A stretch of DNA of 24,000 nt from Clostridiales bacterium (GCA_015056255.1 SVGP01000023.1:1-24000), one strand, 5' to 3'; shown: positions 4,675 to 23,742, numbered from the stretch's first letter. Notes: generated by a model from the letters alone, not told the origin. Program-made: numbers and translations.

Positions 4675-4749
4675 AATTTCCTCCGTGCGCAAATTTGCCG
4701 ATTCTTACTTATTATAATCATACCACAAAACCGCTCTCATTGCAAATGC

Positions 4750-7717: not shown

Positions 7718-7756
7718 ATCTTCACCTCCCGGGAAAATGCATACATACACATATAC

Positions 7757-7785
7757 ATTATACAATAAACCCGAAAAAAACACAA
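7757..7785 (-). promoter_or_regulatory. Possible extended -10 promoter for the LRR protein gene
   Basis: The minus strand reads TTGTGT, a 17-nt spacer ending in TGT, then TATAAT (7762-7757). Confidence 0.4.
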
Positions 7786-7790
7786 CACCG

Positions 7791-7835
7791 CACAAAATAA
7801 ACCCGCCGTCCGAAACATCTGCAGACGGCGGGTTT
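7791..7835 (-). terminator. Intrinsic terminator ending the long T-box-controlled operon
   Basis: The minus-strand RNA reads AAACCCGCCGUC, a 13-nt loop, then GACGGCGGGUUU followed by AUUUUGUG, starting 8 nt after the gamma-subunit stop. Confidence 0.75.
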
Positions 7836-9125: not shown

Positions 9126-10196
9126 TTACTTATCGCCTCCATTCTTGGCTGCTGCTTCTTCAATGGACTGAAGTACCTGTTCGGGAGTGGGGATCATGCC
9201 GCCGGTACGGGAGCAGAGGGTCACGGGGCGCGAGCAGCGGATGGCAAGCTCGACATCCTCAATCATCTGGCCCATGTTAAGCTCGACCGAAATAAACGCC
9301 TTTGCGGTCTTGGCCTTTTCGAAAAGAACCTTCTTCGGGAACGGCCAAAGGGTGATCGGGCGGATCATACCGGCCTTGATGCCCTTTTCGCGCGCAGCGA
9401 CGATGGCGTTTCTGGCAACACGGGCAGCCACGCCGAAGGCGACGACCACGATGTCCGCGTCATCCGCCATGAATTCTTCGTACATCGCTTCGTTTTCTTC
9501 GATTTCCTTGTACATGGCATATCTTTTGATATTCCACTGCTCAAGCTCTTCCGGAAGCAGCGACAGGGAGTTTACGATGTTGTGGGTTCTTTCTCCCTTG
9601 GTGCCGGTGACCGCCCAGGGCTTATCGTACGCCTTGACTTCGCCCATGTCGAGGGAAACCGGCTCCATCATCTGACCCATAGTGCCGTCAGCAAGGATCA
9701 TGGTGGTCATGCGGTATTTGTCGGCAAGGTCAAAGCCCTTGAACACCAGGCTCGCCATTTCCTGAACGGATGCGGGCGCGAGCACCAGCATTCTGAAGTC
9801 GCCGTGTCCTGCGCCGCGGGTGGCCTGAAAATAGTCGGACTGGCTGGGCTGAATGCCGCCAAGGCCGGGCCCGCCCCTCTGTACGTTTACAATCAGCGCG
9901 GGAAGATCGCAGCCGGCCAAGTAGCTGATGCCTTCGCTTTTTAAGGAAATTCCGGGGCTGGAGGAGGAGGTCATAACGCGCTTGCCGGCGGAGGCAACGC
10001 CGATGACCATATTGATGGCGGCGACTTCGCTTTCCGCCTGAAGGAAGGTTCCGCCGATCTGGGGCATGCGCTTGGCCAGATACGCCGCAACCTCCGTCTG
10101 AGGCGTGATGGGATAGCCGAAATAATGGCGGCAGCCGGCCATGATGGCGGCTTCAGCCAGGGCTTCGTTGCCCTTCATAAGCACTTTATCTGCCAT
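9126..10196 (-). CDS. 2-oxoacid:ferredoxin oxidoreductase, alpha subunit
   Basis: MKGNEALAEAAIMAGCRHYFGYPITPQTE is the conserved alpha N-terminus. Start set at ATG 10196 (MADKVLMKG). The longer ORF would overlap the delta gene. Confidence 0.9.
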   Translation of the reverse strand: MADKVLMKGNEALAEAAIMAGCRHYFGYPITPQTEVAAYLAKRMPQIGGTFLQAESEVAAINMVIGVASAGKRVMTSSSSPGISLKSEGISYLAGCDLPALIVNVQRGGPGLGGIQPSQSDYFQATRGAGHGDFRMLVLAPASVQEMASLVFKGFDLADKYRMTTMILADGTMGQMMEPVSLDMGEVKAYDKPWAVTGTKGERTHNIVNSLSLLPEELEQWNIKRYAMYKEIEENEAMYEEFMADDADIVVVAFGVAARVARNAIVAAREKGIKAGMIRPITLWPFPKKVLFEKAKTAKAFISVELNMGQMIEDVELAIRCSRPVTLCSRTGGMIPTPEQVLQSIEEAAAKNGGDK

Positions 10197-10207
10197 AATC
10201 TTGTTTC

Positions 10208-10414
10208 CTACCTTTCCACAGTGATCACGCAGTCCGGGCACATGGTGGCGCAGAAAGCGCAGCCGATGCACTTTTCAGGTTCCGTGACCTTTGCCGGGTG
10301 ATGTCCCTGCTGGTTTAATTTCGTTTCGTCGAGCGCGACGATTTTCTTGGGGCATGCGCCCACGCAAAGGCCGCAGCCCTTGCATCTTTCCTCGCGGAAC
10401 GTTACTTTTGCCAT
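10208..10414 (-). CDS. 2-oxoacid:ferredoxin oxidoreductase, delta subunit (2x[4Fe-4S] ferredoxin)
   Basis: Two CxxCxxCxxxCP motifs: CKGCGLCVGACP and CIGCAFCATMCP. 68 aa. GGAGGAA ribosome-binding site. Confidence 0.9.
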   Translation of the reverse strand: MAKVTFREERCKGCGLCVGACPKKIVALDETKLNQQGHHPAKVTEPEKCIGCAFCATMCPDCVITVER

Positions 10415-10432: not shown

Positions 10433-11101
10433 TCAATAGATCGCCCATTCGTCGCGGAAATGGAGCCGGATGGGCATGGGATGAACCACTTTGCCTTTGA
10501 TTTCGTTTATCAAATCCTCGCGGACGGTCGTGCCCAGAAGCGGAAGATTTGTTTTTTCGGAAACCTCTCTTGCAAGCGCGTCCGTTTCTGCGATATCCGA
10601 AACCGCAGTCATTTGTCCGAGATTGGAATTGTTGAGAAGGGCCGTAACTTTCATGCCGGAAGCGGTTTCCACTTCCCGAAGCACGCTGATCAATTGATCC
10701 GCCGTCCTCGTAAGCGGACGATAGAAGTTCATCACGAACACCATTTCGTAATCGTCCTCCGCCATTAAGGAAGGCGCGAGCCGTCCAAGCGCAAGCGCGC
10801 CTCTGTCGTCACCGCCAACGTCCACAACCGCGTGCGTTTGCTTGTCGTCGATGATCCTGTACATCTCTTCGGGCAGCGCGGGCACGTCCACATTGGTGTT
10901 TGCGTAGCTTGAAACCACGATTTCCACGCCCGCATCCTTCAGCGCCTTTTCGCTGTCTCTCGTTCTGAAATACGGGTTAACGATGTCAAGATCCGCTATC
11001 AGCGTTTTAAGGCCTTCTTTTTTGAGTCCCAGCGCGTAATTGACCGCGATATTGGTTTTGCCGCTTCCGTAGTGGCCTGAAAAAAGCGTTACTCTTTTCA
11101 C
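10433..11101 (-). CDS. P-loop NTPase of unknown function (MinD/ParA/CooC-like SIMIBI fold)
   Basis: The Walker A-like motif is FSGHYGSGKTNIAVNYA, followed by LIADLDIVNP and VVDVGGDDRG (Walker B-like). The GTG start abuts the ilvE stop (TAAGTG). No closer family is recognisable by eye. Confidence 0.7.
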   Translation of the reverse strand: MKRVTLFSGHYGSGKTNIAVNYALGLKKEGLKTLIADLDIVNPYFRTRDSEKALKDAGVEIVVSSYANTNVDVPALPEEMYRIIDDKQTHAVVDVGGDDRGALALGRLAPSLMAEDDYEMVFVMNFYRPLTRTADQLISVLREVETASGMKVTALLNNSNLGQMTAVSDIAETDALAREVSEKTNLPLLGTTVREDLINEIKGKVVHPMPIRLHFRDEWAIY

Positions 11102-12166
11102 TTATATTTTCTCCGTCCAGCCGAATGCGTCTTCCTTCTTGCCCCACTGGATGCCGGTGAGCTCGTCATACAGCTTCTGGGTGAGCTCGCCGATGTTCCC
11201 GCCGTTTACGACATAAGGAACGTCGTCCACGGACAATTCGCCGATGGGAGACACGACAGCCGCCGTTCCGCAGCCAAACGCCTCTTCAAGCGCGCCCGTT
11301 TTAACCGCCTCGGCCAATTCGTCCACGGAAAGGAGCCTTTCCTCTACCGGGACGCCCCACTTTTCAAGAAGCGCGATACAGCTTCTTCTGGTGATGCCGG
11401 GAAGAACGGATCCTGTGAGCTTCGGGGTAACGACGGTTCCGTTAATTTTGAACATGACGTTCATGGAGCCGACCTCTTCGACATATTTGCGCTCTACGCC
11501 GTCCAGCCACAGAACCTGGGCAAAGCCTTTCTTTTCGGCCTTTTCGCCGGCGCGCATGGAGGCTGCGTAGTTGCCGCCGCACTTGGCATAGCCGGTGCCG
11601 CCGCGAACCGCGCGAACGTCCTCGGTTTCGATCATAATACGGACGGGGTTTACGCCTTCCTTATAATAAGAACCGGAAGGCGAAAGAATGATGATGAAGG
11701 TGGCGTTGTTTACAGTGTGAACGCCCAGGAACGGGTCGTTTCCGAACAGGAAGGGGCGGATATAAAGGGACGCGCCTTCCGCGGAAGGAACCCAGTCGCG
11801 GTCGATATCGATCAGGGTTTTTAAAGCCTTTAAGCAGAATTCGCCGTCGATTCTGGGAAGGCAGAGGCGGTCGGCGGAATCGTTCATGCGGTCAAAGTTG
11901 TCCATGGGGCGGAACAGCTGAATTTCGCCGTCCGGACGGCGGTAGGCCTTCATGCCCTCGAAAATCTCCGCGCCGTAGTGAAGCACGGTAGACGCAGGCG
12001 AGATGGAAATGTTGCCGTAGGGAACGATTCTTGCGTCGTGCCAGCCGTTTTCGCGGTCAAACTCCATCACAAACATGTGATCAGTAAAAACTTTTCCAAA
12101 GCCCAGTTTGCTTGCGTCGGCGGGCTTTACTTTGGGATTCATATTTTTTTCAATACGGATTTCCAT
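11102..12166 (-). CDS. ilvE: Branched-chain amino acid aminotransferase (class IV PLP enzyme)
   Basis: LGFGKVFTDHMF, HYGAEIFEGMKAYR, GTGYAKCGGNYAAS, PGITRRS and GTAAVVSPIG blocks are typical of long-form IlvE. Confidence 0.93.
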   Translation of the reverse strand: MEIRIEKNMNPKVKPADASKLGFGKVFTDHMFVMEFDRENGWHDARIVPYGNISISPASTVLHYGAEIFEGMKAYRRPDGEIQLFRPMDNFDRMNDSADRLCLPRIDGEFCLKALKTLIDIDRDWVPSAEGASLYIRPFLFGNDPFLGVHTVNNATFIIILSPSGSYYKEGVNPVRIMIETEDVRAVRGGTGYAKCGGNYAASMRAGEKAEKKGFAQVLWLDGVERKYVEEVGSMNVMFKINGTVVTPKLTGSVLPGITRRSCIALLEKWGVPVEERLLSVDELAEAVKTGALEEAFGCGTAAVVSPIGELSVDDVPYVVNGGNIGELTQKLYDELTGIQWGKKEDAFGWTEKI

Positions 12167-12215: not shown

Positions 12216-14729
12216 TTATTGATTTGAAAGGCCAAATATTTCCGCAGCTTTTTCGCGCATCTTGTATTTTTGAATTTTGCCTGCGTCGTTCATGATGAAT
12301 TTGTCTACAAACCACACGTACTTGGGCACCTTGTGGCGAGCCATATTGGCGCGGACATAAGCCTTTACGTCCTCTTCCGTCATTTCCTCGCCCTCGCGGA
12401 CAATGACGCAGGCCATAATTTCTTCGCCGTACTGCTTATCGGGAACGCCGATGACCTGAACGTCGGAAATTTTGTCATGCGTAATTAGGAATTCCTCAAT
12501 CTCGCGCGGATAAATGTTTTCGCCGCCTCTGATGATCATGTCCTTGAGTCTGCCCGTCACGCGGTAGTTTCCGTCCTTGTCGCGGATGCAAAGGTCGCCG
12601 GTGTGCAGCCACCCTTCCCTGTCGATGGCTTCGTATGTTGCGGAGGGCATTTTGTAGTAGCCCTTCATGATGTTGTAGCCTCTGGCTACGAATTCGCCCT
12701 GCTCGCCGTCGGGCAGCTCCTTTCCGGTTGCGGGATCGATGATCCTGCATTCGATTTCGGGAAGCGCGCAGCCCACGGTCTGGGTGCGAACGTCCAGAGA
12801 ATCCTCATAGCATCTGCTCATCGTGCAGCCGGGCGCGGCCTCCGTCTGACCATAGACGGATACGATGCCGGTCATGTTCATGCGCTTGGCCGCTTCCCGC
12901 ATGACGCTTTCGGGGCAGTTTGCGCCGGCCATGATGCCGGTTCGCATGTGGGAAAAATCGGTCTTTTCAAAGTCCGGATGCGAAAGCATGGCGATAAACA
13001 TCGTGGGAACGCCATTAAAGCAGGTGATTTTTTCGCGGTTCACGCAGTCCAGCGCGGGCTTGGGCGAAAAGTACGGAAGCGGGCACATGGTGCTTCCGTG
13101 CGTCATGGACGCAGTCATGGAAAGTACCATGCCGAAGCAGTGGAACATGGGCACCTGGATCATCATGCGGTCAGCGGTGGAAAGATCCATTCGGTCGCCG
13201 ATGCATTTTCCGTTGTTGACAACTCCCCTGTGCGTGAGCATGACGCCCTTGGGAAAGCCGGTGGTGCCGGAGGTATACTGCATGTTGGCAACGTCGTCGC
13301 CCTTGATTTCGCTTGCGCGCCTGTATACTTCCTCCAGAGGAACCATGGGCGCACGGTCCATCATTTCATCAAACGTTAAGCATCCTTCCATTTTAAAGCC
13401 GACTGTAACGACGTTTCTTAAGAATGGAAGCCTTTGGGCGTGCAGTGGCTGGCCGGGCTCGGTGTGTTCAAGCTCCGGGCAAAGGCGTTTGATGGTGTCT
13501 ACATAGTTGGAATCGCGGAAGCCGTCCACCATGATAAGCGTGTGGGTATCGGACTGACGCAAAAGGTATTCCGCCTCGGCAATTTTGTAGGCGGTGTTCA
13601 TGGTGACGAGCGTCGCGCCGATTTTTGTAGTCGCCCAGAAGGCGATGTACCACGCGGGCACGTTGGTTGCCCACACGGTTACGTGGCTGTCTCGCTTGAC
13701 GCCCAGAGAAATGAGCGCACGGGCGCAGGCGTCCACATCGTCCCTAAACTGGGAATAGGTGCGCGTGTAGTCGAGGGTGGTGTATTTAAAGCACAATTGA
13801 TCCGGGAATTCCTTGACCATTCTGTCCAGCACCTGCGGGAAAGTCATGTCGATCAAGCTGTCGTGCTTCCAGACATATTTTCCGGTGCCCGCTTTATTGA
13901 GATACAATCCCTGCTCCCATGCGGGCGCGGGCTCAAAGTTTTTGACAAAGGAGGCAAAGTGCGCATACACTACGCCCGGGTCGTCCACTTCCTTAAGCCA
14001 CTCGGGATCCCATTCGAGGGAATAAAAGCCGTCGTAGCTGACGCTTCTTAACGCGCCGAAGATTTCCTTCATCGGAAGCGTGCCTTCGCCGAGCAGGCAG
14101 TATTCTGATTTTCCATCCTTAACGACCGAATCCTTCAGGTGCACATGCTTTACATATGCGCCGAGATTGGTGATCGTCTTTTCGGGCTTTTCGCCCATCA
14201 GGCGGTATGGATGGTGCACATCCCACAAAGCCGCCAGATGATCGCAGGCAAATTCATTTAAAATGCCGACCAGGCGCGAAGTATCGGCAAATATGCCGCA
14301 GGTTTCAATAAGCAAGGTAACGTCCGCCTTTTCAGCAAGCGGCAGAACTTTTTTAACCAGTTCCTTTACGTTTTCGTTTTCCTTTTCCTCGCCCTCGCCT
14401 GTTGAAAGCGCGCGCAGGCGTACAAAGGGAGCGTTTACCTTATCTGCAAAGGCGATGAGGTTTTTAATTTCCTCAGCTCTTTTGCCGTCTTCATCGTTTT
14501 CTGCGGGGTTCATGCGCGCATCAAGGCAGGTGATCGTGAGCCCCAGCGCTTTTAAGGATCGAACGGTGTGGTCGATTTCACCCTTTTGAAACGGCGCGCC
14601 AACGCCCGTAAACCGGCTTTCGCCGATATCGTGAATCTCGATGCCGTCAAGGCGCATTTCCCTTGCCACCGACACAAAATCGGCAAAGGAAAAGCTGTTC
14701 CAGCCGTAGGTGGATACGGAAAGCTTCAT
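12216..14729 (-). CDS. Fusion protein with an N-terminal xylose-isomerase-like TIM barrel (sugar phosphate isomerase/epimerase family) and a C-terminal AMP-forming acyl-CoA ligase
   Basis: Residues 1 to about 265 show TIM-barrel features (LDGIEIH, LLIETC, HLKD, SLEW). From about residue 290 the sequence is FadD-like, with YTSGTTGFPKGVMLTH (A3/P-loop), GQTE, WLHTGDL, RLKDMIIRGGENIYPREIE and a C-terminal GKIQK lysine motif. It overlaps the upstream gene by 4 nt (ATGA). Confidence 0.85.
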   Translation of the reverse strand: MKLSVSTYGWNSFSFADFVSVAREMRLDGIEIHDIGESRFTGVGAPFQKGEIDHTVRSLKALGLTITCLDARMNPAENDEDGKRAEEIKNLIAFADKVNAPFVRLRALSTGEGEEKENENVKELVKKVLPLAEKADVTLLIETCGIFADTSRLVGILNEFACDHLAALWDVHHPYRLMGEKPEKTITNLGAYVKHVHLKDSVVKDGKSEYCLLGEGTLPMKEIFGALRSVSYDGFYSLEWDPEWLKEVDDPGVVYAHFASFVKNFEPAPAWEQGLYLNKAGTGKYVWKHDSLIDMTFPQVLDRMVKEFPDQLCFKYTTLDYTRTYSQFRDDVDACARALISLGVKRDSHVTVWATNVPAWYIAFWATTKIGATLVTMNTAYKIAEAEYLLRQSDTHTLIMVDGFRDSNYVDTIKRLCPELEHTEPGQPLHAQRLPFLRNVVTVGFKMEGCLTFDEMMDRAPMVPLEEVYRRASEIKGDDVANMQYTSGTTGFPKGVMLTHRGVVNNGKCIGDRMDLSTADRMMIQVPMFHCFGMVLSMTASMTHGSTMCPLPYFSPKPALDCVNREKITCFNGVPTMFIAMLSHPDFEKTDFSHMRTGIMAGANCPESVMREAAKRMNMTGIVSVYGQTEAAPGCTMSRCYEDSLDVRTQTVGCALPEIECRIIDPATGKELPDGEQGEFVARGYNIMKGYYKMPSATYEAIDREGWLHTGDLCIRDKDGNYRVTGRLKDMIIRGGENIYPREIEEFLITHDKISDVQVIGVPDKQYGEEIMACVIVREGEEMTEEDVKAYVRANMARHKVPKYVWFVDKFIMNDAGKIQKYKMREKAAEIFGLSNQ

Positions 14730-16120
14730 ACATTGGCCTCCCTGTAAACGATCTTGTTAAGGGCGTTTAAGTACGCGCGGATGGACGCTCCGATAATATC
14801 TGTGGAAATGCCGCGCCCGGAATAGAGCTTGCCGCCGTCGCGCAGCTTTACCAGCGCTTCGCCCATGGCCTCGCGACCGCTGGTTACGGACTGAATTTCA
14901 AAATCGTCCAATTCGTAGTGGTGACCGACGACATTTTCAATCGCCATGAACGCCGCGTCGATCGGGCCATCGCCTGCGGAGAGACCCTGAACGGTCTCGC
15001 CCAGCTTATCAAGAACGATATGCGCGGTGGCGCTGATAATATTTCCGCTGTTGACCACGTAGCTTGAAAGCTTGTAGGTCGGGGGTACCTGAAGGGCGAC
15101 GGATGCGATGATCGCATCGAGCTCTCTTGCATCCACAGGCTTTTTGAGGGACATATTCTGAAACGCCTCAAACACCTTGGCAAGGTCTTCGCTGGAAAGA
15201 TCGTAGCCTAAGAGGGATGCGGCTCTTGCGACGGACGCGATGTCCGCGTTTTTATCGAGTTCCTTTTTGGGCTGCGCAGGAACGGCCAATTCTGCGCCGT
15301 TTAACGATTCCTTGGGCATGGCGCGGTCGAATCTTGCAATCAGGCTGACGGCTCGCTTCAGTGCAGTTTTGTCCACGTTGATCGCGGCTCCGACCTTTTC
15401 ACCCCTTGCGCTTAAGATATTGGTCATCTCTTCAAGGCCAGGCTGATCGCCAGAGGCGCAAACCGTGATCTGGTTGGCTCCGGCGCGGACTGCTTCAAAC
15501 GCGCAGGCGCAGGCCATGGAGATGGCGTTTCCGGTCTTTACGCCCACGTTTCTTTCGTGAAGCTCGGGAACGGATACATAAAGGCCCTTGATGAACGCGC
15601 CGAATTCGTCCGGCAGCATTTCGCCTGCGTCGTCCGAAACGGTGATCGTTTTTGCGCCTGCGTTCACTGCGGTTTCAACCGCTTTCGCAAGGAAGCTTTC
15701 CTCAGCGCGGGTAGCGTCAAGGGCGGTGAATTCAACATCCTCAATATAAGCCGCAGCGGTTTTTACCATCTGCTCAATCATTTCAAGCATGGCAGCCGGC
15801 TTCTTTTTATACATATACTCCATCTGAACGATGGAAACGGGCAGTTTTACGTTCAGGCGCGCTTTTTTTGCGTCCTTTACCGCATTGTAGGCCGCTTCCA
15901 CTTCTTCCATATTGAGAACCGGGCAGGAAACAATGCTGTTTACGGTCTGCTGCGCAACGGACTTGATCAGAATTTCATTGGCCTTTGCGCCTGCGATTGC
16001 GCTGGTTTCGATCACGTCCACATGAACGCCGTCCAAAATGCGCGCAGTTTCCAGCTTTTCTTTGAAGCTCATACCCTGTTTCGCCGAAAGCGTCGTTTCA
16101 ACAAGTCTGATGGTTTTCAT
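14726..16120 (-). CDS. 2-isopropylmalate synthase-like protein with degenerate catalytic motifs and an intact LeuA-type C-terminal regulatory domain
   Basis: The HMGL-like barrel aligns by eye to LeuA. DTTLRDGEQ is replaced by ETTLSAKQG, the metal-binding HxH(NDLG) by VKTGNAIS, and no HESGIH block is present. The C-terminus (GDGPIDAAFMAIENV...GRGISTDIIGASIRAYLNALNKI) is a good LeuA dimerisation/allosteric domain. Start set at the second ATG (16120), 8 nt after AAGGAG. Confidence 0.85.
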   Translation of the reverse strand: MKTIRLVETTLSAKQGMSFKEKLETARILDGVHVDVIETSAIAGAKANEILIKSVAQQTVNSIVSCPVLNMEEVEAAYNAVKDAKKARLNVKLPVSIVQMEYMYKKKPAAMLEMIEQMVKTAAAYIEDVEFTALDATRAEESFLAKAVETAVNAGAKTITVSDDAGEMLPDEFGAFIKGLYVSVPELHERNVGVKTGNAISMACACAFEAVRAGANQITVCASGDQPGLEEMTNILSARGEKVGAAINVDKTALKRAVSLIARFDRAMPKESLNGAELAVPAQPKKELDKNADIASVARAASLLGYDLSSEDLAKVFEAFQNMSLKKPVDARELDAIIASVALQVPPTYKLSSYVVNSGNIISATAHIVLDKLGETVQGLSAGDGPIDAAFMAIENVVGHHYELDDFEIQSVTSGREAMGEALVKLRDGGKLYSGRGISTDIIGASIRAYLNALNKIVYREANV

Positions 16121-16162
16121 ATTCATATCTCCTTTGGCTCAATATGCGCTTGAATCAATGTT

Positions 16163-16461
16163 TTTCAAAAAAACACGCCCCGGAAACACCTGTTTCCGGG
16201 GCGACAATTTTATTATCGCGGTACCACCCGAATTGATTGCCGAAAAAGCAACCCTCTCATTTAAGGTTCCAATAAACCCTGCGCCAAGATAACGGGGCGA
16301 ACCGTGACGCCTTACTGAAGAAGTTTTTGAAATTCTCCGTTCAGGCATCCTGCTCGAGAAGGAGATGATTCCAATCACTCTGCGCCGCCTCGCACCAAAC
16401 ACGGCTCTCTTCAGCAGGTTGGAAAGGAACCTGGTTCCGTCATAGCATTTGATTTTGCAAT
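16163..16461 (-). promoter_or_regulatory. T-box riboswitch leader 1 (inferred specifier CUC, Leu) with terminator/antiterminator
   Basis: The minus-strand RNA has a K-turn (UGCUAUGAC GGAA ... UUCU CGAGCA), an AG bulge (AGAGAG) and a distal loop (UUUGGUGCGA). The T-box sequence AAUUCGGGUGGUACCGCG lies at 16234-16217. The antiterminator CGGG[UGGUACC]GCGA...UCGC-CCCG competes with the terminator GCCCCGGAAACA-GG-UGUUUCCGGGGC plus a U7 run (16203-16163). The codon at the canonical position is CUC (16364-16362). Confidence 0.88.
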
Positions 16462-16467
16462 GGAGAA

Positions 16468-16496
16468 ACTATACCATTTCAAGCGCAATTTGTCAA
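16468..16496 (-). promoter_or_regulatory. Sigma-A promoter of T-box unit 1
   Basis: TTGACA (16496-16491), a 17-nt spacer ending in TGG (extended -10), then TATAGT (16473-16468). Confidence 0.7.
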
Positions 16497-16554: not shown

Positions 16555-18876
16555 TTAGAGCTTGTTTCTCTGAATCTTGCCGCTTGTGGTCTTGGGCAAT
16601 TCATCACGGAAGACGACAATGCGCGGATATTTATAAGGCGCGGTCTTCTTCTTGACGTAATTCTGGATTTCCTTTTTAAGTTCCTCCGTAGGCTCCGTTC
16701 CCTTGGTAAGGACGATGCTCGCCTTGACCACCTGACCGCGGATTTCATCCGGCGCAGCGGATACGCCGCACTCAATAACATAGGGAAGCTCCATAATGAC
16801 GGATTCGATTTCAAACGGCCCGATTCGGTAACCGGAGGACTTGATCACGTCGTCCACGCGGCCCACATACCAGAAGTAGCCGTCTTCGTCCATCCACGCG
16901 GTATCGCCCGTGTGGTACATGCCATCGGAAACATCCAGAACCGGCTTTTTGAGCGTATTATCGTAGTATCCGCGCGTAAGGCCGCAGGGCAGGCCGTCTT
17001 CCACATGGATGACGATTTCGCCCGTTTCGCCGACGCCCACGCTCTTGCCCTCCGGATTTACAATGTCCACATCGTACAGCGGCACGGGTTTTCCCATGGA
17101 ACCGACCTTGGGCGTCATGCCGACGGTGTTTCCGATCATCATAGTGGTTTCCGACTGGCCGAAGCCCTCCATGAGGGATAAGCCCGTGGCCTTCTTGAAC
17201 TGGTGGAACACCTCGGGGTTCAGGGCCTCGCCCGCGATGGTCGCATGCTTGATGGAGGAAAGATCGAACTTCGAAAGATCCTCCTTGATCATGAAGCGAT
17301 ACATGGTGGGCGGCGCGCAGAAGGTGGTGATGTTGTATTTTTTGAACATCGGAAGGATATCGTTGGCGTCGAAGCGATCAAAGTCGTATACGAAAATCGC
17401 GCCTTCGCTCAGCCACTGACCGTAGAGCTTGCCCCACATGCTCTTGGCCCAGCCGGTGTCGGAAATGGTGTAGTGAAGGCCGTTGGGGTCGACGGTATGC
17501 CAGTAGTGGGCGGTAATGAAGTGGCCCAGCGGGTAGGTATATGTGTGGGATGCGATCTTGGGATAGCCGGTTGTTCCGCTGGTAAAGAACATGAGCATAA
17601 GGTCCTCGCCCTCGGGGCGTTTTTCGCCTTCCGGCACGGTGAGGGTAGATCTGAACATGCGGTATTCCGTGTCAAAGCTTCTCCAGCCATCGCGTTCGCC
17701 CTCAACCACGATGCGGTTACCAACAAACGGACACTCCTCAAGCGCAAGCTCCGCCTGATTGATGCAGTCGCCGACGCCGGTCACGATGACGGTGGAGACG
17801 CCGGCGGCAGTAAATCTGTAGGAAAGATCCTTTTTCAGAAGCTGGTTGGGTGCGAGGATTGCGATTGCGCCGATTTTCTGAAGCGCCATCATGATGATCC
17901 AGAACTGATAATGACGGCGGAGCATCAGAAGCACCTTGTCGCCCTTTTTGACGCCGATGGATCTGAAGTAGTTGGCGGCGCGGTTGGAAAGGCGCGAAAT
18001 ATCGGCAAAGGTGAAGCGGTTTTCCACGCCGTCGCGCGAAATGTGCATCATGGCCAGCTTTTCAGGGTTGTTCTTACCCAGCTCGTCCACAATGTCAAAG
18101 GCAAAGTTGAACTTTTCAGGATTTTTGAAGGAAATGGCTTTCAAAGAGCCATCGGGATTTTCAACCGCGTCCACCCACTTCGACCAGATGTGCTCGCCCT
18201 CGGGCGCAGTATGCACGGGCGCGGGCGCAATTTCGACCTTGGGAAGGGTCATCATGGGCTCTTTGACGGTGAGCTCCGGAATCGCATCGCCCGACGGATT
18301 TAAAACAATCGCGTAAAACAGGCAGTTTTCGCCGCCCACCGCGATCATGCCGTGGGGCTTGGAGGAGTCGTAATAGATGCTGTCGCCGGGGCCCAGAATC
18401 TCCCAGTGCGTTCCGACCTGCACCTTGAGCTTACCGGAAATAACGATATCGCATTCCTGGCCCTCGTGGCTGGTCAGTTCAATGTCCTGATACTGCGCCT
18501 CCTCGGAATAGGCGGCGTTTACGTACAAAGGCTCAGCGATTCGGTTTTTGAACTGCGCAGCGAGGTTATAGTACACCATGCCGTGCGCCTGCTCTATCCT
18601 CTGCCCCATGCCGTTTCTGGTTACGGTGTAGCCGGAAAGACGGGGGCTCGCGCCCTCGATAATATCGGTAACGTCAACATTCAAAACCAGCGCGCAGCGG
18701 TAAATAAAGGCGAAGTTCAGATCCGCCTTGCCCGCCTCGCAAAGTCTGTATTCCTCAATCGTAACGCCCGTCTTTTTGGCCATGCTCTCTTCGGAAATAC
18801 CCTCGATTTCACGAAGCTCCTTAATACGGCCTGCCATCTCCTGAAGCTTGAATTCCAGACCCGTCGTCTGATTCAT
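16555..18876 (-). CDS. HTH(XRE)-cupin-acyl-CoA synthetase fusion (AMP-forming, medium/short-chain ACS-like), paralog A
   Basis: Residues 12-72 form a Cro/C1-type HTH (RIKELREIEGISEESMAKKTGVTIEEYRLCEAGK). Residues around 105-195 form a cupin (SHEGQECDIVISGKLKVQVG...GDSIYYDSSKPHG). The remainder is an AMP-binding enzyme (FTSGTTGYPKIASHT, GFGQSETT, YHTGDTA, DDVIKSSGYRIGPFEIES, SGKIQRN). Start at ATG 18876, with AAAGGGGG 9 nt upstream. Confidence 0.9.
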   Translation of the reverse strand: MNQTTGLEFKLQEMAGRIKELREIEGISEESMAKKTGVTIEEYRLCEAGKADLNFAFIYRCALVLNVDVTDIIEGASPRLSGYTVTRNGMGQRIEQAHGMVYYNLAAQFKNRIAEPLYVNAAYSEEAQYQDIELTSHEGQECDIVISGKLKVQVGTHWEILGPGDSIYYDSSKPHGMIAVGGENCLFYAIVLNPSGDAIPELTVKEPMMTLPKVEIAPAPVHTAPEGEHIWSKWVDAVENPDGSLKAISFKNPEKFNFAFDIVDELGKNNPEKLAMMHISRDGVENRFTFADISRLSNRAANYFRSIGVKKGDKVLLMLRRHYQFWIIMMALQKIGAIAILAPNQLLKKDLSYRFTAAGVSTVIVTGVGDCINQAELALEECPFVGNRIVVEGERDGWRSFDTEYRMFRSTLTVPEGEKRPEGEDLMLMFFTSGTTGYPKIASHTYTYPLGHFITAHYWHTVDPNGLHYTISDTGWAKSMWGKLYGQWLSEGAIFVYDFDRFDANDILPMFKKYNITTFCAPPTMYRFMIKEDLSKFDLSSIKHATIAGEALNPEVFHQFKKATGLSLMEGFGQSETTMMIGNTVGMTPKVGSMGKPVPLYDVDIVNPEGKSVGVGETGEIVIHVEDGLPCGLTRGYYDNTLKKPVLDVSDGMYHTGDTAWMDEDGYFWYVGRVDDVIKSSGYRIGPFEIESVIMELPYVIECGVSAAPDEIRGQVVKASIVLTKGTEPTEELKKEIQNYVKKKTAPYKYPRIVVFRDELPKTTSGKIQRNKL

Positions 18877-18895
18877 GAATAAAAGCCCCCTTTCA

Positions 18896-19192
18896 GTCAA
18901 AAAAATCCGCCTCAAAGAAACATATCGTCTTTGAGGCGAATGAAAAAATCTTTCACACGCGGTACCACTCAAATTCACGCATTTTGAAAATGCGCCTCAC
19001 GGCTCCATCAAGCCGTTCTCCCTTTTCGCAGGCTCACGGGAGGCTCTACTGATTTCGGTCACCCGAAACGTTCTGCCGTCCGGCTCGGAAGCGACAAATT
19101 CTGCCTTCTCGTTACCGGCTCGCACCAAGCGCCGGCTCTCTGAAACGATTTTCCGTCAGAATCCTCTTCGTCATCGCCAATGATATGAAATT
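18896..19192 (-). promoter_or_regulatory. T-box riboswitch leader 2 (inferred specifier GUC, Val)
   Basis: The minus-strand RNA has a K-turn (GGCGAUGAC GAAG ... CUUC CGAGCC) and an AG bulge plus distal loop (AGAGAGCCGGCGCUUGGUGCGAGCCGG). The T-box sequence AAUUUGAGUGGUACCGCG lies at 18975-18958. The antiterminator is UUGAG[UGGUACC]GCG...CGC-CUCAA. The terminator is CGCCUCAAAGA, 9 nt, UCUUUGAGGCG, then GAUUUUUUU (18938-18896). The codon at the canonical position is GUC (19095-19093), followed by G. Confidence 0.88.
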
Positions 19193-19198
19193 AGAGAT

Positions 19199-19227
19199 AT
19201 GATACCACGAAGGGCGGAATCTGTCAA
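19199..19227 (-). promoter_or_regulatory. Sigma-A promoter of T-box unit 2
   Basis: TTGACA (19227-19222), a 17-nt spacer ending in TGG, then TATCAT (19204-19199), preceded by a T-rich UP-like tract. Confidence 0.7.
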
Positions 19228-19275
19228 TGAAAAAAACAGAAATCCTCACCGAACATGCAAATTTTCCTGCATTGC

Positions 19276-19304
19276 TTGATATGACATCAAAAAACTGTTA
19301 TACT
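19276..19304 (+). promoter_or_regulatory. Probable promoter of the DUF4160/DUF2442 pair
   Basis: TTGATA (19276-19281), a 17-nt spacer ending in TGT, then TATACT (19299-19304). Confidence 0.5.
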
Positions 19305-19327
19305 AAAAATATAAGGAGGCGATGTGC

Positions 19328-19594
19328 ATGCCAGAACTAAGCAGGTTTGCCGGAATCATTGTCAAAATGATTTTCAACGATACCGTTCAACATAATAAAC
19401 CCCACGTTCACGTATATTACGGTGAATATCAGGCCTCCATCGGCATTGATGGCGAATTATTGGCAGGTTCACTGCCTGTAAAGCAGCTAAAAATGGTTGT
19501 TGGATGGCTGGCACTTCACGAAGAAGAGGCCTATGCTGCATGGAATAAGGCTGTACGCGGCGAACGCTTCGACAAGATCAAACCCCTGATTTAA
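19328..19594 (+). CDS. DUF4160-family small protein
   Basis: MPELSRFAGIIVKMIFND..HNKPHVHVYYGEYQASIGIDGELLAGSLP matches the DUF4160 pattern (MP.ISRF.GI.I.MY..DH.PPHFH). Start taken at ATG 19328, 8 nt after AAGGAGG. Confidence 0.8.
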   Translation: MPELSRFAGIIVKMIFNDTVQHNKPHVHVYYGEYQASIGIDGELLAGSLPVKQLKMVVGWLALHEEEAYAAWNKAVRGERFDKIKPLI

Positions 19595-19605
19595 GGAGAT
19601 ATGCT

Positions 19606-19890
19606 ATGTATATTATTGACGGAATCGCATATGCATCCCAAAAAATGCAGGAAACATTCGTAACGGCAGTTAAACCGCTTGACGATATGATGATGATCGT
19701 CACATTCGGATCCGGCGAAAAACGATTGTATGACGCCTCTCAACTTCTCGATTTCCCAGCATTTCAACCCCTTAAAGATGAAACTGTTTTCATGAATGCA
19801 AAGGTGGAATATGGCGTCGTCACATGGGCGGACGGTGAAATCGACATTGCGCCGGAAACCATGTACGAAAACAGCTACGAATATCAATAA
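19606..19890 (+). CDS. DUF2442-family small protein
   Basis: The pattern (V.PLDD..L.V.F..GE.R..D...LLD.P.F.PL.D...F..V.V..G.V.W..GEIDIAPE.LYE) is typical of DUF2442. AAGGAG lies 7 nt upstream. The start is 11 nt after the DUF4160 stop. Confidence 0.8.
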   Translation: MYIIDGIAYASQKMQETFVTAVKPLDDMMMIVTFGSGEKRLYDASQLLDFPAFQPLKDETVFMNAKVEYGVVTWADGEIDIAPETMYENSYEYQ

Positions 19891-19902
19891 AGAATATATC
19901 AA

Positions 19903-19940
19903 GGCAGCGCACGGCCTGTGCGCTGCCTGACTTTTCTATT
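19903..19940 (+). terminator. Intrinsic terminator after the DUF2442 gene
   Basis: GGCAGCGCAC, a 5-nt loop, GTGCGCTGCC, then TGACTTTTCTATTT. It may also serve the convergent minus-strand gene. Confidence 0.7.
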
Positions 19941-19984
19941 TGCAAGAATTGTAATTACGGAAGATTCCTCTATATTTTTCTCCC

Positions 19985-20995
19985 TCATTCCCCAAAGAAC
20001 ACTCTGGGCGTATTGATGATACAAAATGCAATAACATCCTTATAGCGTTTGGTTTTCCCTGTTTCCAATGATACACAGTATGCATCCGCGCCGTATAAGG
20101 CGCGCATCCTAAAATAAACAAGTTCCTTTCCGGCTTTCGATACGGCGATACCCGTTTCCGGCTCCAGCAAGGACAAAGTAATCGTTTTCCCTTTTCTTGT
20201 CTTATAGTCTTCAATTGTATTTTCCTGAACGGAATACATTTTGAGAACTCCGTCTTTGTCAATAAACAAAAGCGTATCGTCATTCAGCCATGCGGGCGCT
20301 TCCCCTTCGCCGATATCTCTGACATTTCCGTCTGAATCGATTATAACAATCCTGTCAGGCAGGATAATATACGGGAATGCAAAGGAATCCTTGGTTTCAT
20401 CAAGGATTGTTTCGTAATAGCTGAATGCAATCCTGCCGCTTGACGAAACCGTATTTGAAGTCGTGTAAGTGTATCCGCGATTATCCGCCGGCGAAACAGC
20501 CCCATTTAACATCGCCCATTCCGGCGGGCAAAAACACATCTGGTAATCAACATGCGGATAAACGAATGTATCTCCGTTTTTGTTTAAGCGAACATACTCG
20601 CAGCAATATTCCTTGTTTTCCGCCAATCGGCAATAGTAGTAATCATCTCCATGCGCCGCAAATACATGCAGAAGGTTCGGATCCTTTATGATGCAGTCCG
20701 TTTGGATGTTTCCGTCTTCATGGACAGTGAGGATTTCCGTTTCACCGATCTCAATATGTTCACGCGCAGCACGCACACCCACTTCTTCAGTAAAGCCCTC
20801 AATCAGATAAAAATCCGCAGGACATACATCCTCGGCATGCTTTTTCGAAAGATCCTGTTTTCTGAACAACTGCGGATGATCGTCATCATCATACTCCACA
20901 AAGAAAACAGTACCGGATATCCCTGACGCAGCACACGCAGGGAACATTGAAGTAAAAATCACCATGATCAAAAGCAGGCAGAATTTCTTTTTCAT
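19985..20995 (-). CDS. Secreted Cys-rich hypothetical protein
   Basis: Signal peptide MKKKFCLLLIMVIFTSMFPACA with an A-x-A cleavage site. GGAGGAA ribosome-binding site. The C-terminal half has beta-propeller-like repeats (IIDSDGNVRDIG, LFIDKDGVLKMY). No recognisable enzyme motifs. Confidence 0.7.
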   Translation of the reverse strand: MKKKFCLLLIMVIFTSMFPACAASGISGTVFFVEYDDDDHPQLFRKQDLSKKHAEDVCPADFYLIEGFTEEVGVRAAREHIEIGETEILTVHEDGNIQTDCIIKDPNLLHVFAAHGDDYYYCRLAENKEYCCEYVRLNKNGDTFVYPHVDYQMCFCPPEWAMLNGAVSPADNRGYTYTTSNTVSSSGRIAFSYYETILDETKDSFAFPYIILPDRIVIIDSDGNVRDIGEGEAPAWLNDDTLLFIDKDGVLKMYSVQENTIEDYKTRKGKTITLSLLEPETGIAVSKAGKELVYFRMRALYGADAYCVSLETGKTKRYKDVIAFCIINTPRVFFGE

Positions 20996-21036
20996 ATTTC
21001 CTCCGTACCATTCTCTGATTGTAATGTTGTACTTTC

Positions 21037-21065
21037 AGTATATCATCCTTTCCTATTTGTGTCTA
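21037..21065 (-). promoter_or_regulatory. Possible promoter of the secreted hypothetical gene
   Basis: TAGACA, a 17-nt spacer ending in TGA, then TATACT, read on the minus strand. Confidence 0.45.
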
Positions 21066-21073
21066 CCGCACAT

Positions 21074-21108
21074 ATAAAATACCGCCGCAGGGCAATTCCT
21101 GCGGCGGC
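21074..21108 (-). terminator. Intrinsic terminator after the unit-3 ligase gene
   Basis: The minus-strand RNA reads CCGCCGCAGG, a 6-nt loop, CCUGCGGCGG, then UAUUUUAUAU, starting 6 nt after the stop. Confidence 0.75.
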
Positions 21109-21113
21109 ATTCT

Positions 21114-23390
21114 TTACAGAAGATTCCTCTGGATCTTTCCGCTGATGGTTTTGGGAAGCTCATCCTTGAAGACGACGATTCTCGGATACTTGTAGGGCGC
21201 GGTTTTGTGCTTTACGTATTCCTGAATTTCCTTTTTGAGTTCCTCGGTGGGTTCGGTGCCCTTGGTTAAGACGATGCTCGCCTTGACCACCTGGCCGCGG
21301 ATCTCGTCGGGGGCTGCGGAAACGCCGCACTCGAGGACGTAGGGAAGCTCCATGATGACGGATTCGATTTCAAACGGCCCAATGCGGTAGCCGGAGGACT
21401 TGATCAGATCGTCCACGCGGCCTACATACCAGAAGTAGCCGTCTTCGTCCTTCCATGCGGTATCGCCGGTGTGGTACATGCCGTCCGAAAGGTCGATTTC
21501 AGGAACGCCCTTTTCGTTGTTGTAATAGCCGAGAGTAAGACCCATCGGGGGCTTGCCGTCCTTAAGGCGCACGACGATTTCGCCGGTTTCGCCCTGCTGG
21601 ACGCTGTTGCCGTCGTGATCGACGATGTCGATGTCGTAATTGGGAACGGGCTTGCCCATGGAGCCGACCTTCGGGCGCATACCGACGAGATTGGCGATGG
21701 TAAGGGTGGTTTCGGTCTGACCGAAGCCTTCCATAAGGGAGATGCCCGTGGCTTTTCTGAACTGATAGAAGACCTCGGGGTTCAAAGCTTCGCCTGCGAT
21801 GGTGGCATGCTCAATGGAAGAAAGATCGTATTTGGAAAGATCTTCCTTGATCATGAAGCGATACATGGTGGGCGGCGCGCAGAAGGTTGTGATGTGATAC
21901 TTTTTGAACATCGGCAGAATGACAGAGGCGTCGAAGCGGTCAAAGTCGTATACGAACGTCGCCGCCTCGCACATCCACTGGCCGTAAAGCTTGCCCCACA
22001 GCGCCTTGCCCCAGCCGGTGTCGGAGATAGTGAAGTGAAGGCCATCTGGGTTGACGTTGTGCCAATATTTGGCGGTAGCAAAATGCGCAAGCACGTATTT
22101 ACAGGAGTGAGTTGCGATCTTGGGATAGCCCGTCGTTCCGCTTGTAAAGAGCATGAGCATGGGATCGTCGCCCTTGATGGAATCCTCCGTTCTCGGGAAG
22201 GTGGAGGAGAACATGCGGGCTTCGGTGTCAAAGTCGCGCCAGCCCTCGCGAACGCCGTCGACGATGATTCTGTGTTTTAAAGTCGGGCTGTCCTTAAGCG
22301 CCTTGTCTACTTCTTCTGCAACCTTTCCCGTGCCCGTACAGATGATAGCGGAAACGCCGGCGGCATTGAAGCGGTAGGTAAGGTCGTGTTCGACCAGAAG
22401 GTTGGTTGCGGGGATGACGATTGCACCCAGCTTATGAAGCGCAAGAATGGCCTGCCAGAACTGATAATGGCGGCGCAGAATCAGCATGACTCTGTCGCCC
22501 TTTTTGATGCCGAGGGATTTAAAATAGTTGGCAACGCGGGAGGAAGAGCGGGAAAGCTCGCGGAAAGTGAACTTTCTTTCCTCCATATTGCGGCTTACGT
22601 GAACCATTGCAACCTTATCGGGCTTCTTTTCGGCGATGGCGTCCACGATATCGAAGGCAAAGTTGAACTCGTCCGCGTTTTTGTATTTGATCTCCTTGAC
22701 AAGGCCGTTTTCGTCCTCAACGCCCTCGACGAATTTTTCATAAATTCTGCCCTCAGTGCGCTTGGCGGCGACGATGGTGTCCCTGATTTCGAGCTCCTCC
22801 GTCTCCTCGCCCGGCAGTACCACCGCGCAGAAATAGCAGTCCTGACCTTCCACCGCGATCATGCCGTGGGGCGTTGAGGAGTCGTAATAGATGCTGTCGC
22901 CTTCATGCAGGATCTCGGTATGCTCGCCCACCTGCACCTTCAGTGCGCCGGACATGATCAGGTCAAATTCCTGACCGCTGTGGCGGGTCAGATGGATGGG
23001 GCTTTTCTGCTGCTCGGGCGAATATTCGTATTTTACAAAATAAGGCTCGGCAATCTTCTTTTTGAAAAGCGGCGCAAGGGACCTGATTTCAAGGCCTACT
23101 TCGCGCGCGGTAACCGTGCCCTGGCCTTTTCTGGTAACGGTGTACTGGGTCAGGCGCGCGGATTTACCTTCCATAAGGTCGGTGATTTCAACGCCCAGTT
23201 CCAGCGCGCATTTGTGGATGAAGCTGAAGGGGAAGTCCAGCTGGCCGTCCTCGTACTGCACATACATTTCGAGGCTCACTTCCGTGCGCTCGGCCATTTC
23301 CTCCCTTGAAAAACCAGCGATTTCACGCAGCTCACGAATTCGGGCCGCCACCTCGAAGATTTTATTGGTCGCGTTGTTTGTCGCCTGCAT
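21114..23390 (-). CDS. HTH(XRE)-cupin-acyl-CoA synthetase fusion, paralog B
   Basis: Same three-domain layout as 16555-18876: RIRELREIAGFSREEMAERTEVSLEMYVQYEDGQ, then RHSGQEFDLIMSGALKVQVG...GDSIYYDSSTPHG, then FTSGTTGYPKIATHS...SGKIQRN. The C-terminal 90 aa are nearly identical to paralog A. Start at ATG 23390, with GGAGGG upstream. Confidence 0.9.
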   Translation of the reverse strand: MQATNNATNKIFEVAARIRELREIAGFSREEMAERTEVSLEMYVQYEDGQLDFPFSFIHKCALELGVEITDLMEGKSARLTQYTVTRKGQGTVTAREVGLEIRSLAPLFKKKIAEPYFVKYEYSPEQQKSPIHLTRHSGQEFDLIMSGALKVQVGEHTEILHEGDSIYYDSSTPHGMIAVEGQDCYFCAVVLPGEETEELEIRDTIVAAKRTEGRIYEKFVEGVEDENGLVKEIKYKNADEFNFAFDIVDAIAEKKPDKVAMVHVSRNMEERKFTFRELSRSSSRVANYFKSLGIKKGDRVMLILRRHYQFWQAILALHKLGAIVIPATNLLVEHDLTYRFNAAGVSAIICTGTGKVAEEVDKALKDSPTLKHRIIVDGVREGWRDFDTEARMFSSTFPRTEDSIKGDDPMLMLFTSGTTGYPKIATHSCKYVLAHFATAKYWHNVNPDGLHFTISDTGWGKALWGKLYGQWMCEAATFVYDFDRFDASVILPMFKKYHITTFCAPPTMYRFMIKEDLSKYDLSSIEHATIAGEALNPEVFYQFRKATGISLMEGFGQTETTLTIANLVGMRPKVGSMGKPVPNYDIDIVDHDGNSVQQGETGEIVVRLKDGKPPMGLTLGYYNNEKGVPEIDLSDGMYHTGDTAWKDEDGYFWYVGRVDDLIKSSGYRIGPFEIESVIMELPYVLECGVSAAPDEIRGQVVKASIVLTKGTEPTEELKKEIQEYVKHKTAPYKYPRIVVFKDELPKTISGKIQRNLL

Positions 23391-23417
23391 GAAAATCCCT
23401 CCTTTGAAATGAATTTT

Positions 23418-23707
23418 GAAAATAAAAAAACGCCCCAAAGAAACCACTGTTTCTTTGAGACGAAAATCACTTTATAGATTTCCGCGGTACCACTCAAATT
23501 GCGTTTGTCAAAAACGCCCCTTAACAGGCTCCATCAAGCCCTGCGCCTGTAACGCTGCGCCAGCGGGAAGAGACTACTGGAAAAATTTCATCCTTCCGGC
23601 TCGGGAGTGATGGGCACATTGACCATATGCTTTCGCCGGCTTTCACCAAGCGCCGGCTCTCTGTGGAAATGCATTTTGATCTGCCGTCTCCGTCATTGCT
23701 TTTCTTG
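23418..23707 (-). promoter_or_regulatory. T-box riboswitch leader 3 (inferred specifier AUC, Ile)
   Basis: The minus-strand RNA has a K-turn (AGCAAUGAC GGAG ... CUCC CGAGCC) and an AG bulge plus distal loop (AGAGAGCCGGCGCUUGGUGAAAGCCGGCG). The T-box sequence AAUUUGAGUGGUACCGCG lies at 23500-23483. The terminator is CGUCUCAAAGAAAC, 4 nt, GUUUCUUUGGGGCG, then a U7 run (23462-23418). The codon at the canonical position is AUC (23611-23609), followed by A. Confidence 0.88.
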
Positions 23708-23713
23708 GAAGAT

Positions 23714-23742
23714 ATATTACCACCGATCGCCACGTTTGTCAA
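23714..23742 (-). promoter_or_regulatory. Sigma-A promoter of T-box unit 3
   Basis: TTGACA (23742-23737), a 17-nt spacer ending in TGG, then TAATAT (23719-23714), with an A/T-rich UP-like tract upstream. Confidence 0.7.

Follow-up and report, generated by a model that had tools for sequence, protein, structure and literature searches.

The 24,000-nucleotide (nt) stretch of Clostridiales bacterium DNA analysed here (GCA_015056255.1 SVGP01000023.1:1-24000, referred to as the window) carries on its minus strand three units, each of which opens with a promoter and a T-box leader: an isoleucine (Ile) module (unit 3), a valine (Val) module (unit 2) and a leucine (Leu) module (unit 1). The Ile module encodes a 758 amino acid (aa) protein (21114-23390, minus strand) and the Val module a 773 aa protein (16555-18876, minus strand); in both, Pfam finds HTH_3/HTH_19, Cupin_2, AMP-binding and AMP-binding_C domains, so that a helix-turn-helix (HTH) and a cupin segment precede an AMP-forming acyl-coenzyme A (acyl-CoA) synthetase. 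The predicted products are a 2-methylbutyrate-CoA ligase and an isobutyrate-CoA ligase, respectively. Mechanically listed longer open reading frames (ORFs) extend into the leaders, the true starts being the ATG at 23390 and the ATG at 18876. A previous sequence-only reading had proposed that the Ile and Val units arose by duplication of a whole module, with riboswitch and enzyme co-diversifying afterwards. For these modules we determined that the leaders are T-boxes, which specifiers they carry, how old the duplication is, how clade and specifier are coupled and which genes are linked, and the outcome makes such a history likely.

The promoter of the Ile module (23714-23742, minus strand) is TTGACA-17-TAATAT with a TG extension (-35 at 23742, score 10/12, extended -10), and that of the Val module (19199-19227, minus strand) is TTGACA-17-TATCAT, again with a TG extension (-35 at 19227, score 11/12, extended -10). 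The two indeed have in common the layout TTGACA-N14-TGG-TAnnnT, which had been offered as one level of similarity between the modules; as a mark of homology it fails, since the Leu unit has the identical layout (16468-16496, minus strand), which is that of a generic strong extended -10 promoter. A promoter of like architecture stands 5' of 52/72 Ile-class and 45/49 Val-class leaders in the related loci described below. We also looked upstream of the promoters for a shared operator-like motif that the HTH domain might bind, and found promoter hexamers only.

The leaders were identified with the Rfam T-box model RF00230 (219 positions, gathering score 93), which was also run in E-value mode. The Ile-class leader (23453-23705, minus strand) scores 102.2 bits (E 7.6e-22) and the Leu leader (16194-16452, minus strand) 101.8 bits; the Val-class leader (18929-19183, minus strand), at 75.4 bits (E 2.3e-16), lies below the gathering score and is recovered in E-value mode only. 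Both the Ile and the Val leader span model positions 1-219 of 219. Orthologous leaders in relatives score 71-111 bits, most of them 71-86 (71-85 in the Val class), and at the gathering threshold Rfam returned only 4 of the leaders expected in six related loci, E-value mode recovering the rest. Since most leaders, for example the one at 18929-19183 in the window and those of loci L006, L011, L024 and L081, are below the gathering score, routine annotation would miss them.

Covariance-model alignment and the geometry of the kink-turn (K-turn) and its helix place the specifier AUC (Ile) at 23609-23611 and the specifier GUC (Val) at 19093-19095, both on the minus strand. The codon lies directly 5' of the strand CUCC (unit 3) or CUUC (unit 2), whose partner above the K-turn (GC-N-AUGAC ... 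CGAGC) is GGAG or GAAG, the full contexts being GGAG...AUC-A-CUCC-CGAGC and GAAG...GUC-G-CUUC-CGAGC. The minimum free energy (MFE) fold of unit 3 stem I likewise leaves CAUCA unpaired at the specifier site. Stem I was not reproduced in the MFE folds of the unit 1 and unit 2 leaders, as is common when a T-box element is folded on its own. The specifier of the Leu leader is CUC (16364-16362, minus strand). AUC, GUA or GUC, and CUC are the usual specifiers for Ile, Val and Leu, and the assignment of AUC to unit 3 and GUC to unit 2 made in the sequence-only reading held on alignment, helix geometry and the unit 3 fold.

Further downstream, the T-box sequence AAUUUGAGUGGUACCGCG with its UGGU bulge is identical in the Ile leader (23483-23500, minus strand) and the Val leader (18958-18975, minus strand); a UGGN bulge in which N is U would pair with the discriminator A73 that is usual in tRNA-Ile and tRNA-Val. 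Intrinsic terminators were found at 23431-23462 in the Ile leader (14 bp stem and U run, z = -4.05) and at 18908-18938 in the Val leader (14 bp stem, 9-nt loop and U run, z = -2.18), and the terminator of the Leu leader lies at 16203-16176, all on the minus strand. In units 2 and 3 the CUCAAAG of the 5' terminator strand is also the 3' strand of the antiterminator. Judged by this anatomy, both leaders are canonical transcriptional T-boxes, comparable to the Bacillus subtilis tyrS, ileS, valS and ilv-leu leaders in having a stem I with K-turn, specifier loop and distal AGAGA/GGUG elements, stems II, IIA/B and III, a T-box sequence with a UGGN bulge, and competing antiterminator and terminator. 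One departure from known T-boxes concerns the base 3' of the specifier, which is not a conserved purine in this leader group: among 73 Ile leaders it is A in 42, C in 29 and G in 2 (site 23608 in the window Ile leader), and in the Leu leader of the window it is C.

In order to place the modules among their relatives, we assembled 80 loci from a scan of one genome per species and 3 from a close relative that is 87% identical, giving 83 loci (L001-L083) which together with the window contain 124 family genes. The scanned loci are 64-70% identical to unit 3 and carry the labels Acutalibacteraceae, Oscillospiraceae, Ruminococcaceae, Christensenellaceae and the like. Rumen and gut metagenomes are the source of the relatives, and among uncultured Clostridia of gut and rumen the family is abundant. 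A Val-type gene comes after an Ile-type gene, both on one strand, in 44 loci, with a median gap of ~390 nt that leaves room for a promoter and a leader between the tandem genes.

Specifiers in the relatives were assigned by a rule combining the K-turn and its flanking helix. Ile-type genes have AUC in 69-73 cases and GUN in none, while Val-type genes have GUA in about 30-40 and GUC in 5-7 (36-48 in total) and AUC in none. In the few odd calls the first pick was false and the expected codon came second, and a MAFFT alignment of 127 leaders independently gives the same codon columns, invariant within each class (~120 leaders). By neighbour-joining of full-length proteins, with the unit 1 outgroup omitted, Ile-clade and Val-clade genes are sister clades, the bipartition appearing in 50/50 bootstraps. 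We set aside a neighbour-joining tree built on just the synthetase domain, with the very distant unit 1 ligase as its root; it did not resolve the classes and put some Val-class sequences among the Ile-class ones. When mapped onto the phylogeny, the specifier follows the clade without exception (AUC versus GUN) over ~120 modules from 83 loci.

The earlier statement that the two specifiers differ only at position 1 holds for this lineage and a small number of others; GUA, the codon of most relatives, is two positions away from AUC. In the rooted Val-type tree, GUC is found on early branches (the window, L080, L010) and on nested ones (L031, L038), so that either GUC or GUA may be the ancestral Val codon. 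A switch between AUC and GUC in one step, followed by synonymous drift, is a plausible historical path for these leaders.

We then compared the two coding regions of the window. The proteins are 63% identical overall, and in 50-column blocks of the alignment identity is 46-64% in the HTH and cupin part (45-50% when taken by domain), 22% in the linker, 48-90% in the N-terminal synthetase domain and 88-96% over the last ~120 residues, which agrees with the near-identical C-terminus and the more divergent cupin and N-terminal synthetase regions described before. The six strings quoted in the sequence-only reading, from leaders and coding regions, each occur exactly once per unit, where they had been placed. 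Synonymous divergence (dS, Nei-Gojobori) stays near 1 across all regions; the C-terminal domain has a dS of 1.02 and a non-synonymous divergence (dN) of 0.063, with dN/dS 0.06, values for this domain spanning 0.04-0.06. Given a dS of ~1 and a tandem pair kept in 44 loci, the duplication of the modules is ancient, not recent. The near-identical C-terminus is due to purifying selection (dN/dS 0.06 at dS ~1), and at a nucleotide identity of 83-91% chance would be expected to give identical runs of 24-27 nt.

The same C-terminal identity and long runs could also be read as the trace of recent gene conversion, which would make the modules less independent than they look. In 39-44 loci, same-locus paralogues are more alike than cross-locus ones, most of all in the C-terminal domain (0.895 vs 0.866, z = 10.6); the excess in third-position identity is larger in that domain (0.21) than in HTH/cupin (0.11), and same-locus Ile and Val leaders show an excess too (0.646 vs 0.613 +/- 0.004). 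Part of this excess is, however, shared codon usage, and in the window a C-terminal dS of 1.0, together with a third-position identity at identical residues that is flat at 0.63 in all four regions, led us to reject recent conversion as the source of the C-terminal identity. We regard recent conversion as a most improbable account of the pair, while occasional conversion between tandem copies could have occurred in some lineages beside the shared codon usage.

If the modules were duplicated whole, the leaders should be related as well as the genes. Over the relatives and the window, mean leader identity is 0.66 both for Ile-Ile and for Val-Val comparisons and 0.61 for Ile-Val, as against 0.51 for Ile-Leu and 0.50 for Val-Leu; on this measure the Ile and Val leaders are closer to each other than to the Leu leader. 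The leader pattern mirrors the gene tree, in which the Ile and Val enzymes are sisters and the Leu ligase is only ~25% identical to them, and this supports a duplication that took in leader and gene at once. The three identical leader blocks pointed out in the sequence-only reading are all found in both units, although two (the AGAGA/GGUG region and the T-box sequence) are family-wide T-box motifs and so say little about these two leaders in particular. Two other features, taken as derived, are common to the Ile and Val consensus and absent from the Leu leaders: the UUUGAG...CUCAAA antiterminator stem, where the Rfam consensus has GGG, and the CCGUGAuUGCUGCGUaAa.GCAUAGGG block of stem IIA/B, which is missing from the Rfam consensus as well.

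With at least 90% fixation required within each class, the Ile and Val classes differ at just two leader columns. One is specifier position 1, A in Ile and G in Val leaders; the other lies on the 5' side of the specifier loop, with GAAGA-C-GG in the Ile class and GAAGA-G-GG in the Val class (about 23688 and 19166 in the window).

These comparisons bear on a different origin, in which the genes were duplicated without a leader and each copy later gained its T-box independently, for example as a copy of an ileS or valS leader (mode iii of Wels et al.). Independent gain of T-boxes is documented for recently duplicated transporter genes (PMC2494555), and much of the similarity between the Ile and Val leaders does reside in family-wide motifs. 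Yet the Ile-Val identity of 61% is near the within-class value of 66% and well above the 50-51% to Leu leaders, the non-consensus antiterminator stem and stem IIA/B block are common to ~120 leaders, and leader lengths and codon offsets match between the classes, with just the two columns fixed and different. Independent gain is thus improbable in our view, though a shade less so than recent conversion.

Whole-module duplication corresponds to a known mode of T-box evolution (mode ii), in which gene and leader are duplicated together, specificity is altered at the specifier and the product diverges to match (Wels et al. 2008, PMC2494555). The same study noted conserved specifier codon preferences and cites experiments by Grundy et al. 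in which a single specifier nucleotide was able to switch specificity, while PMC3766115 credits Vitreschak et al. 2008 with numerous duplications that changed specificity. As in mode ii, the regulated genes here are sister paralogues whose specifier tracks the clade; unlike earlier cases, the tandem pair is fixed across several families of gut Clostridia and makes an unusually clean matched pair.

With regard to the enzymes, the best PDB match of the Ile-class protein is 3ETC, MacsMa (E 7.9e-184), with 52.6% identity by blastp over ~520 residues; the Val-class protein is 49.4% identical to it over ~520 residues. MacsMa is a Methanosarcina acetivorans medium-chain acyl-CoA synthetase whose preferred substrate is 2-methylbutyrate and whose alternate acyl pocket lies around Trp259, with Gly in place of the pocket Trp of acetyl-CoA synthetase (Acs) (PMC10455477). 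Both signatures are conserved in the window enzymes: Gly replaces Acs Trp414 (GFGQ[T/S]ET aligned with TWWQTET), and the equivalent of Trp259 is found in KYW (Ile class) and HYW (Val class), aligned with AKYW of MacsMa. Unlike the present enzymes, MacsMa is archaeal and has neither the HTH-cupin extension nor a T-box. The best NCBIfam model for both paralogues is MbcS (NF047394), at 426-443 bits (443 for the Ile class) with a cut-off of 850. In Staphylococcus aureus, MbcS selectively activates 2-methylbutyrate and isobutyrate and uses isovalerate poorly (PMC10026030), and in parallel the Leu branch here has an unrelated ligase; there one enzyme takes both acids, whereas here two paralogues are predicted to be specialised. 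Against solved structures, the HTH-cupin part gave only a weak match, to an uncharacterised Vibrio HTH_3/cupin regulator (1Y9Q, E 0.0025).

Comparison of 80 Ile-type with 40 Val-type proteins revealed 11 positions that are fixed within each class and different between them. Ten are in the HTH/cupin part (positions 11, 59, 60, 72, 73, 97, 100, 102, 112 and 117), and the only one in the synthetase domain is Gly461 (Ile) versus Ala477 (Val) in the motif TGW[G/A]K, 100% conserved in both classes. The earlier view, which placed specificity differences in the cupin and N-terminal synthetase regions, is qualified by this: ten of the eleven fixed differences lie outside the N-terminal synthetase region. 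The codons are GGC (22008-22010, minus strand, TGWGK) in the Ile-class gene and GCC (17446-17448, minus strand, TGWAK) in the Val-class gene, one nucleotide apart, and MacsMa has Gly at this position as the Ile class does. The residue aligns with what we take to be Val310 of Escherichia coli Acs, a member of the acetate pocket formed by Val310, Thr311, Val386 and Trp414. The Acs sequence that we aligned has 652 residues with V310, T311, V386, W414 and K609 as expected, and its match of W414 to Gly in MacsMa agrees with the published description (PMC10455477). By this sequence alignment, Gly461/Ala477 maps tentatively to an acyl-pocket position. The smaller side chain would go with the larger predicted substrate, and the extra methyl of Ala would stand where the acid has one carbon fewer, which is the expected direction.

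The genes behind the Leu T-box, all on the minus strand, suggest what the acyl-CoA products would be used for. The first encodes a LeuA-like protein (14726-16126) that keeps the LeuA_dimer regulatory domain and, compared with solved LeuA, has ETTLSAKQG for DTTLRDGEQ and VKTGNA for SHCHDD, the catalytic and metal-binding motifs being lost; on its sequence it may be a pseudoenzyme serving as a leucine sensor. The leader 5' of the LeuA-like gene has CUC in four cases, the window included, and CUG in one. Next comes an 837 aa protein (12216-14729; Pfam, NCBIfam) in which a xylose-isomerase-like TIM barrel (AP_endonuc_2) is joined to an AMP-forming acyl-CoA ligase. In relatives this fusion is conserved at 48-63% identity and the LeuA-like gene always adjoins it; from its position we infer that it is the isovalerate-activating enzyme of the Leu branch. 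It is followed by the branched-chain amino acid aminotransferase IlvE (11102-12166; NCBIfam NF009897, 483 bits, cut-off 307), a P-loop NTPase (10433-11101; weak ParA/NUBPL-like match, no NCBIfam model) and a gene set for 2-oxoisovalerate:ferredoxin oxidoreductase (Vor; 7843-10414) consisting of ferredoxin/delta with 2x[4Fe-4S] (10208-10414; Pfam, ORFs), the alpha subunit VorB (9126-10196; NCBIfam VorB, 531 bits, cut-off 399), beta (8373-9125; Pfam, ORFs) and gamma (7843-8376; Pfam, ORFs).

Linkage of the same genes recurs in the relatives. Upstream of the Ile/Val pair are the LeuA-like and TIM-barrel/ligase genes, which share its strand in 16 loci and diverge from it in 6. The P-loop NTPase gene starts 6-35 nt after the Val-type gene in 26 loci, with Vor genes and IlvE after it where the locus extends far enough, and it directly follows the Ile-type gene in 13 loci that have no intervening Val-type gene. 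In 46 loci it is kept between the ligase genes and the Vor genes, and it may be an iron-sulfur maturation factor for Vor.

Rumen bacteria make Val, Ile and Leu from isobutyrate, 2-methylbutyrate and isovalerate by carboxylation and amination (PMC7356843). The cluster is similar to this reductive carboxylation described by Allison, Bryant and Robinson in the 1960s (PMC7356843) in having three matching precursor-product pairs together with Vor and IlvE. We propose that each T-box would open when its own amino acid is short: uncharged tRNA-Ile would pair with the AUC of unit 3 and uncharged tRNA-Val with the GUC of unit 2, the tRNA acceptor end would pair with the UGGU bulge and stabilise the antiterminator, and RNA polymerase would then continue into the synthetase gene. 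The synthetases would activate the acid that lacks one carboxylation relative to the amino acid in short supply, 2-methylbutyrate for unit 3 (Ile) and isobutyrate for unit 2 (Val); the linked Vor would reductively carboxylate the acyl-CoA to the 2-oxo acid, and the linked IlvE would transaminate the keto acid to the amino acid. The third, unrelated ligase behind the Leu (CUC) T-box would serve the path from isovalerate to Leu. After the duplication, the leader would have been re-specified at the specifier codon, and the enzyme at the pocket residue (Gly versus Ala) and in its HTH/cupin part. Taken this way, gut bacteria probably use the modules to rebuild Ile from 2-methylbutyrate and Val from isobutyrate, in a salvage specific to each amino acid.

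A distinct function for the same genes would be the supply of branched acyl-CoA primers for membrane fatty acids, the T-boxes offsetting the loss of primers derived from amino acids. MbcS, the best NCBIfam model, has precisely this demonstrated role in S. aureus (PMC10026030), and IlvE and Vor running in the oxidative direction would yield branched acyl-CoA too. However, T-boxes induce genes that raise the charged-tRNA pool; oxidative IlvE and Vor would in starvation consume the very amino acid that is scarce. In addition, three amino-acid-specific switches on three ligases fit the three precursor-product pairs of rumen bacteria (PMC7356843), and the close linkage of the ligases with Vor and IlvE is conserved. 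We therefore consider primer supply unlikely, if the least unlikely of the three alternatives weighed here.

Altogether, the explanation that we judge likely is that the Ile and Val units are ancient paralogous modules of promoter, T-box and HTH-cupin-synthetase gene, in which leader and enzyme were re-specified after duplication of the whole module and which serve branched-acid salvage. The clade-specifier coupling, the likeness of the leaders and the Gly461/Ala477 difference support the co-diversification of riboswitch and enzyme that the sequence-only reading had put forward. Several points weigh against this explanation. The substrates are assigned from homology and gene context, the direction of flux from T-box logic only, and tRNA dependence from anatomy. 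The assignment of substrates from homology is soft because MacsMa and MbcS are not strictly selective, and both proteins score so far below the MbcS equivalog cut-off that they are relatives of MbcS, not equivalogs. The concentration of 10/11 class-fixed protein differences in the HTH/cupin part places most of the divergence away from the synthetase domain, and the pocket position of Gly461/Ala477 is a tentative one that comes from a sequence alignment to E. coli Acs. As for the leaders, the sole outgroup is the Leu T-box, which answers to a class II tRNA and may differ for functional reasons. Finally, Vor and IlvE follow only the Val module in most relatives and the Leu module in the window, an arrangement that does not account for their supply during Ile starvation.

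A wider proposal is that the cluster forms a dedicated regulon partitioned by T-boxes, by which Ile, Val and Leu would be rebuilt from branched short-chain fatty acids present in the gut, with three switches, three acyl-CoA ligases and one Vor/IlvE back end, and with the HTH-cupin parts and the dead LeuA, whose leucine-binding regulatory domain is intact, as possible end-product sensors. We put this forward tentatively, as possible rather than likely. Were it true, control would have two layers, one acting on transcription through tRNA charging and one on the enzyme through allosteric feedback, and it would provide gene-level assignments for the activation of branched acids, a step known physiologically in rumen bacteria since the 1960s.

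The two modules, separated by ~390 nt in relatives, are held apart in the window by a lineage-specific insertion of 1.9 kb (19228-21113, with genes on both strands). It contains a DUF4160/DUF2442 gene pair (19322-19890, plus strand) with its own promoter-like site at 19276 and a terminator-like hairpin at 19902-19928, and a 336 aa ORF (19985-20995, minus strand) for which the family search gave no match. A CRISPR-DR4 match at 19467-19494 (20 bits, E 0.17) falls inside the DUF4160 ORF and was taken as chance. The 87%-identical relative has a different insert at the Ile/Val junction, a 7.7 kb sugar-utilisation cassette, and because the two hold different inserts at the same place, this suggests that the junction is an insertion hotspot.

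Outside the cluster, a 477 aa ORF with a BspA-type leucine-rich repeat region and DUF6273 (6362-7795, minus strand) lies directly 3' of the Vor gamma gene and is unrelated to the cluster. An ORF at 3661-4692 (minus strand) matches tRNA methyltransferase (MnmA-type) Pfam families, and the ORFs at 785-1825 and 1884-2510 (minus strand) are presumably RpoA and ribosomal protein S4, which their translations resemble by eye; these neighbours put the cluster in an ordinary chromosomal setting. No tRNA genes were found within the window.

The mechanism of the T-box, the co-duplication mode and the physiology of the pathway are already known, and the regulon is a plausible new prediction. The literature searched contained no account of T-boxes controlling branched-acid CoA ligases, none of this HTH-cupin-ligase family and none that assigns the activation step to genes. 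The genes regulated here are acyl-CoA synthetases and not aminoacyl-tRNA synthetases, de novo biosynthesis genes or transporters; MbcS, for its part, feeds fatty acid primers and is not known to be under T-box control, and the classical rumen work was physiological, while the present assignments are made at the level of genes.

For RNA biology, the family offers a phylogenetically replicated natural experiment in T-box re-specification, with ~120 leaders and two class-different bases, in which the switch in the leader specifier and the switch in the enzyme residue (GGC versus GCC) are one nucleotide each. To microbiologists working on gut and rumen, the specifiers offer built-in labels that assign substrates to anonymous 'AMP-binding proteins', pointing to the genes that would activate isobutyrate, 2-methylbutyrate and isovalerate for amino acid synthesis, a pathway that matters for the supplementation of ruminants with branched-chain fatty acids.

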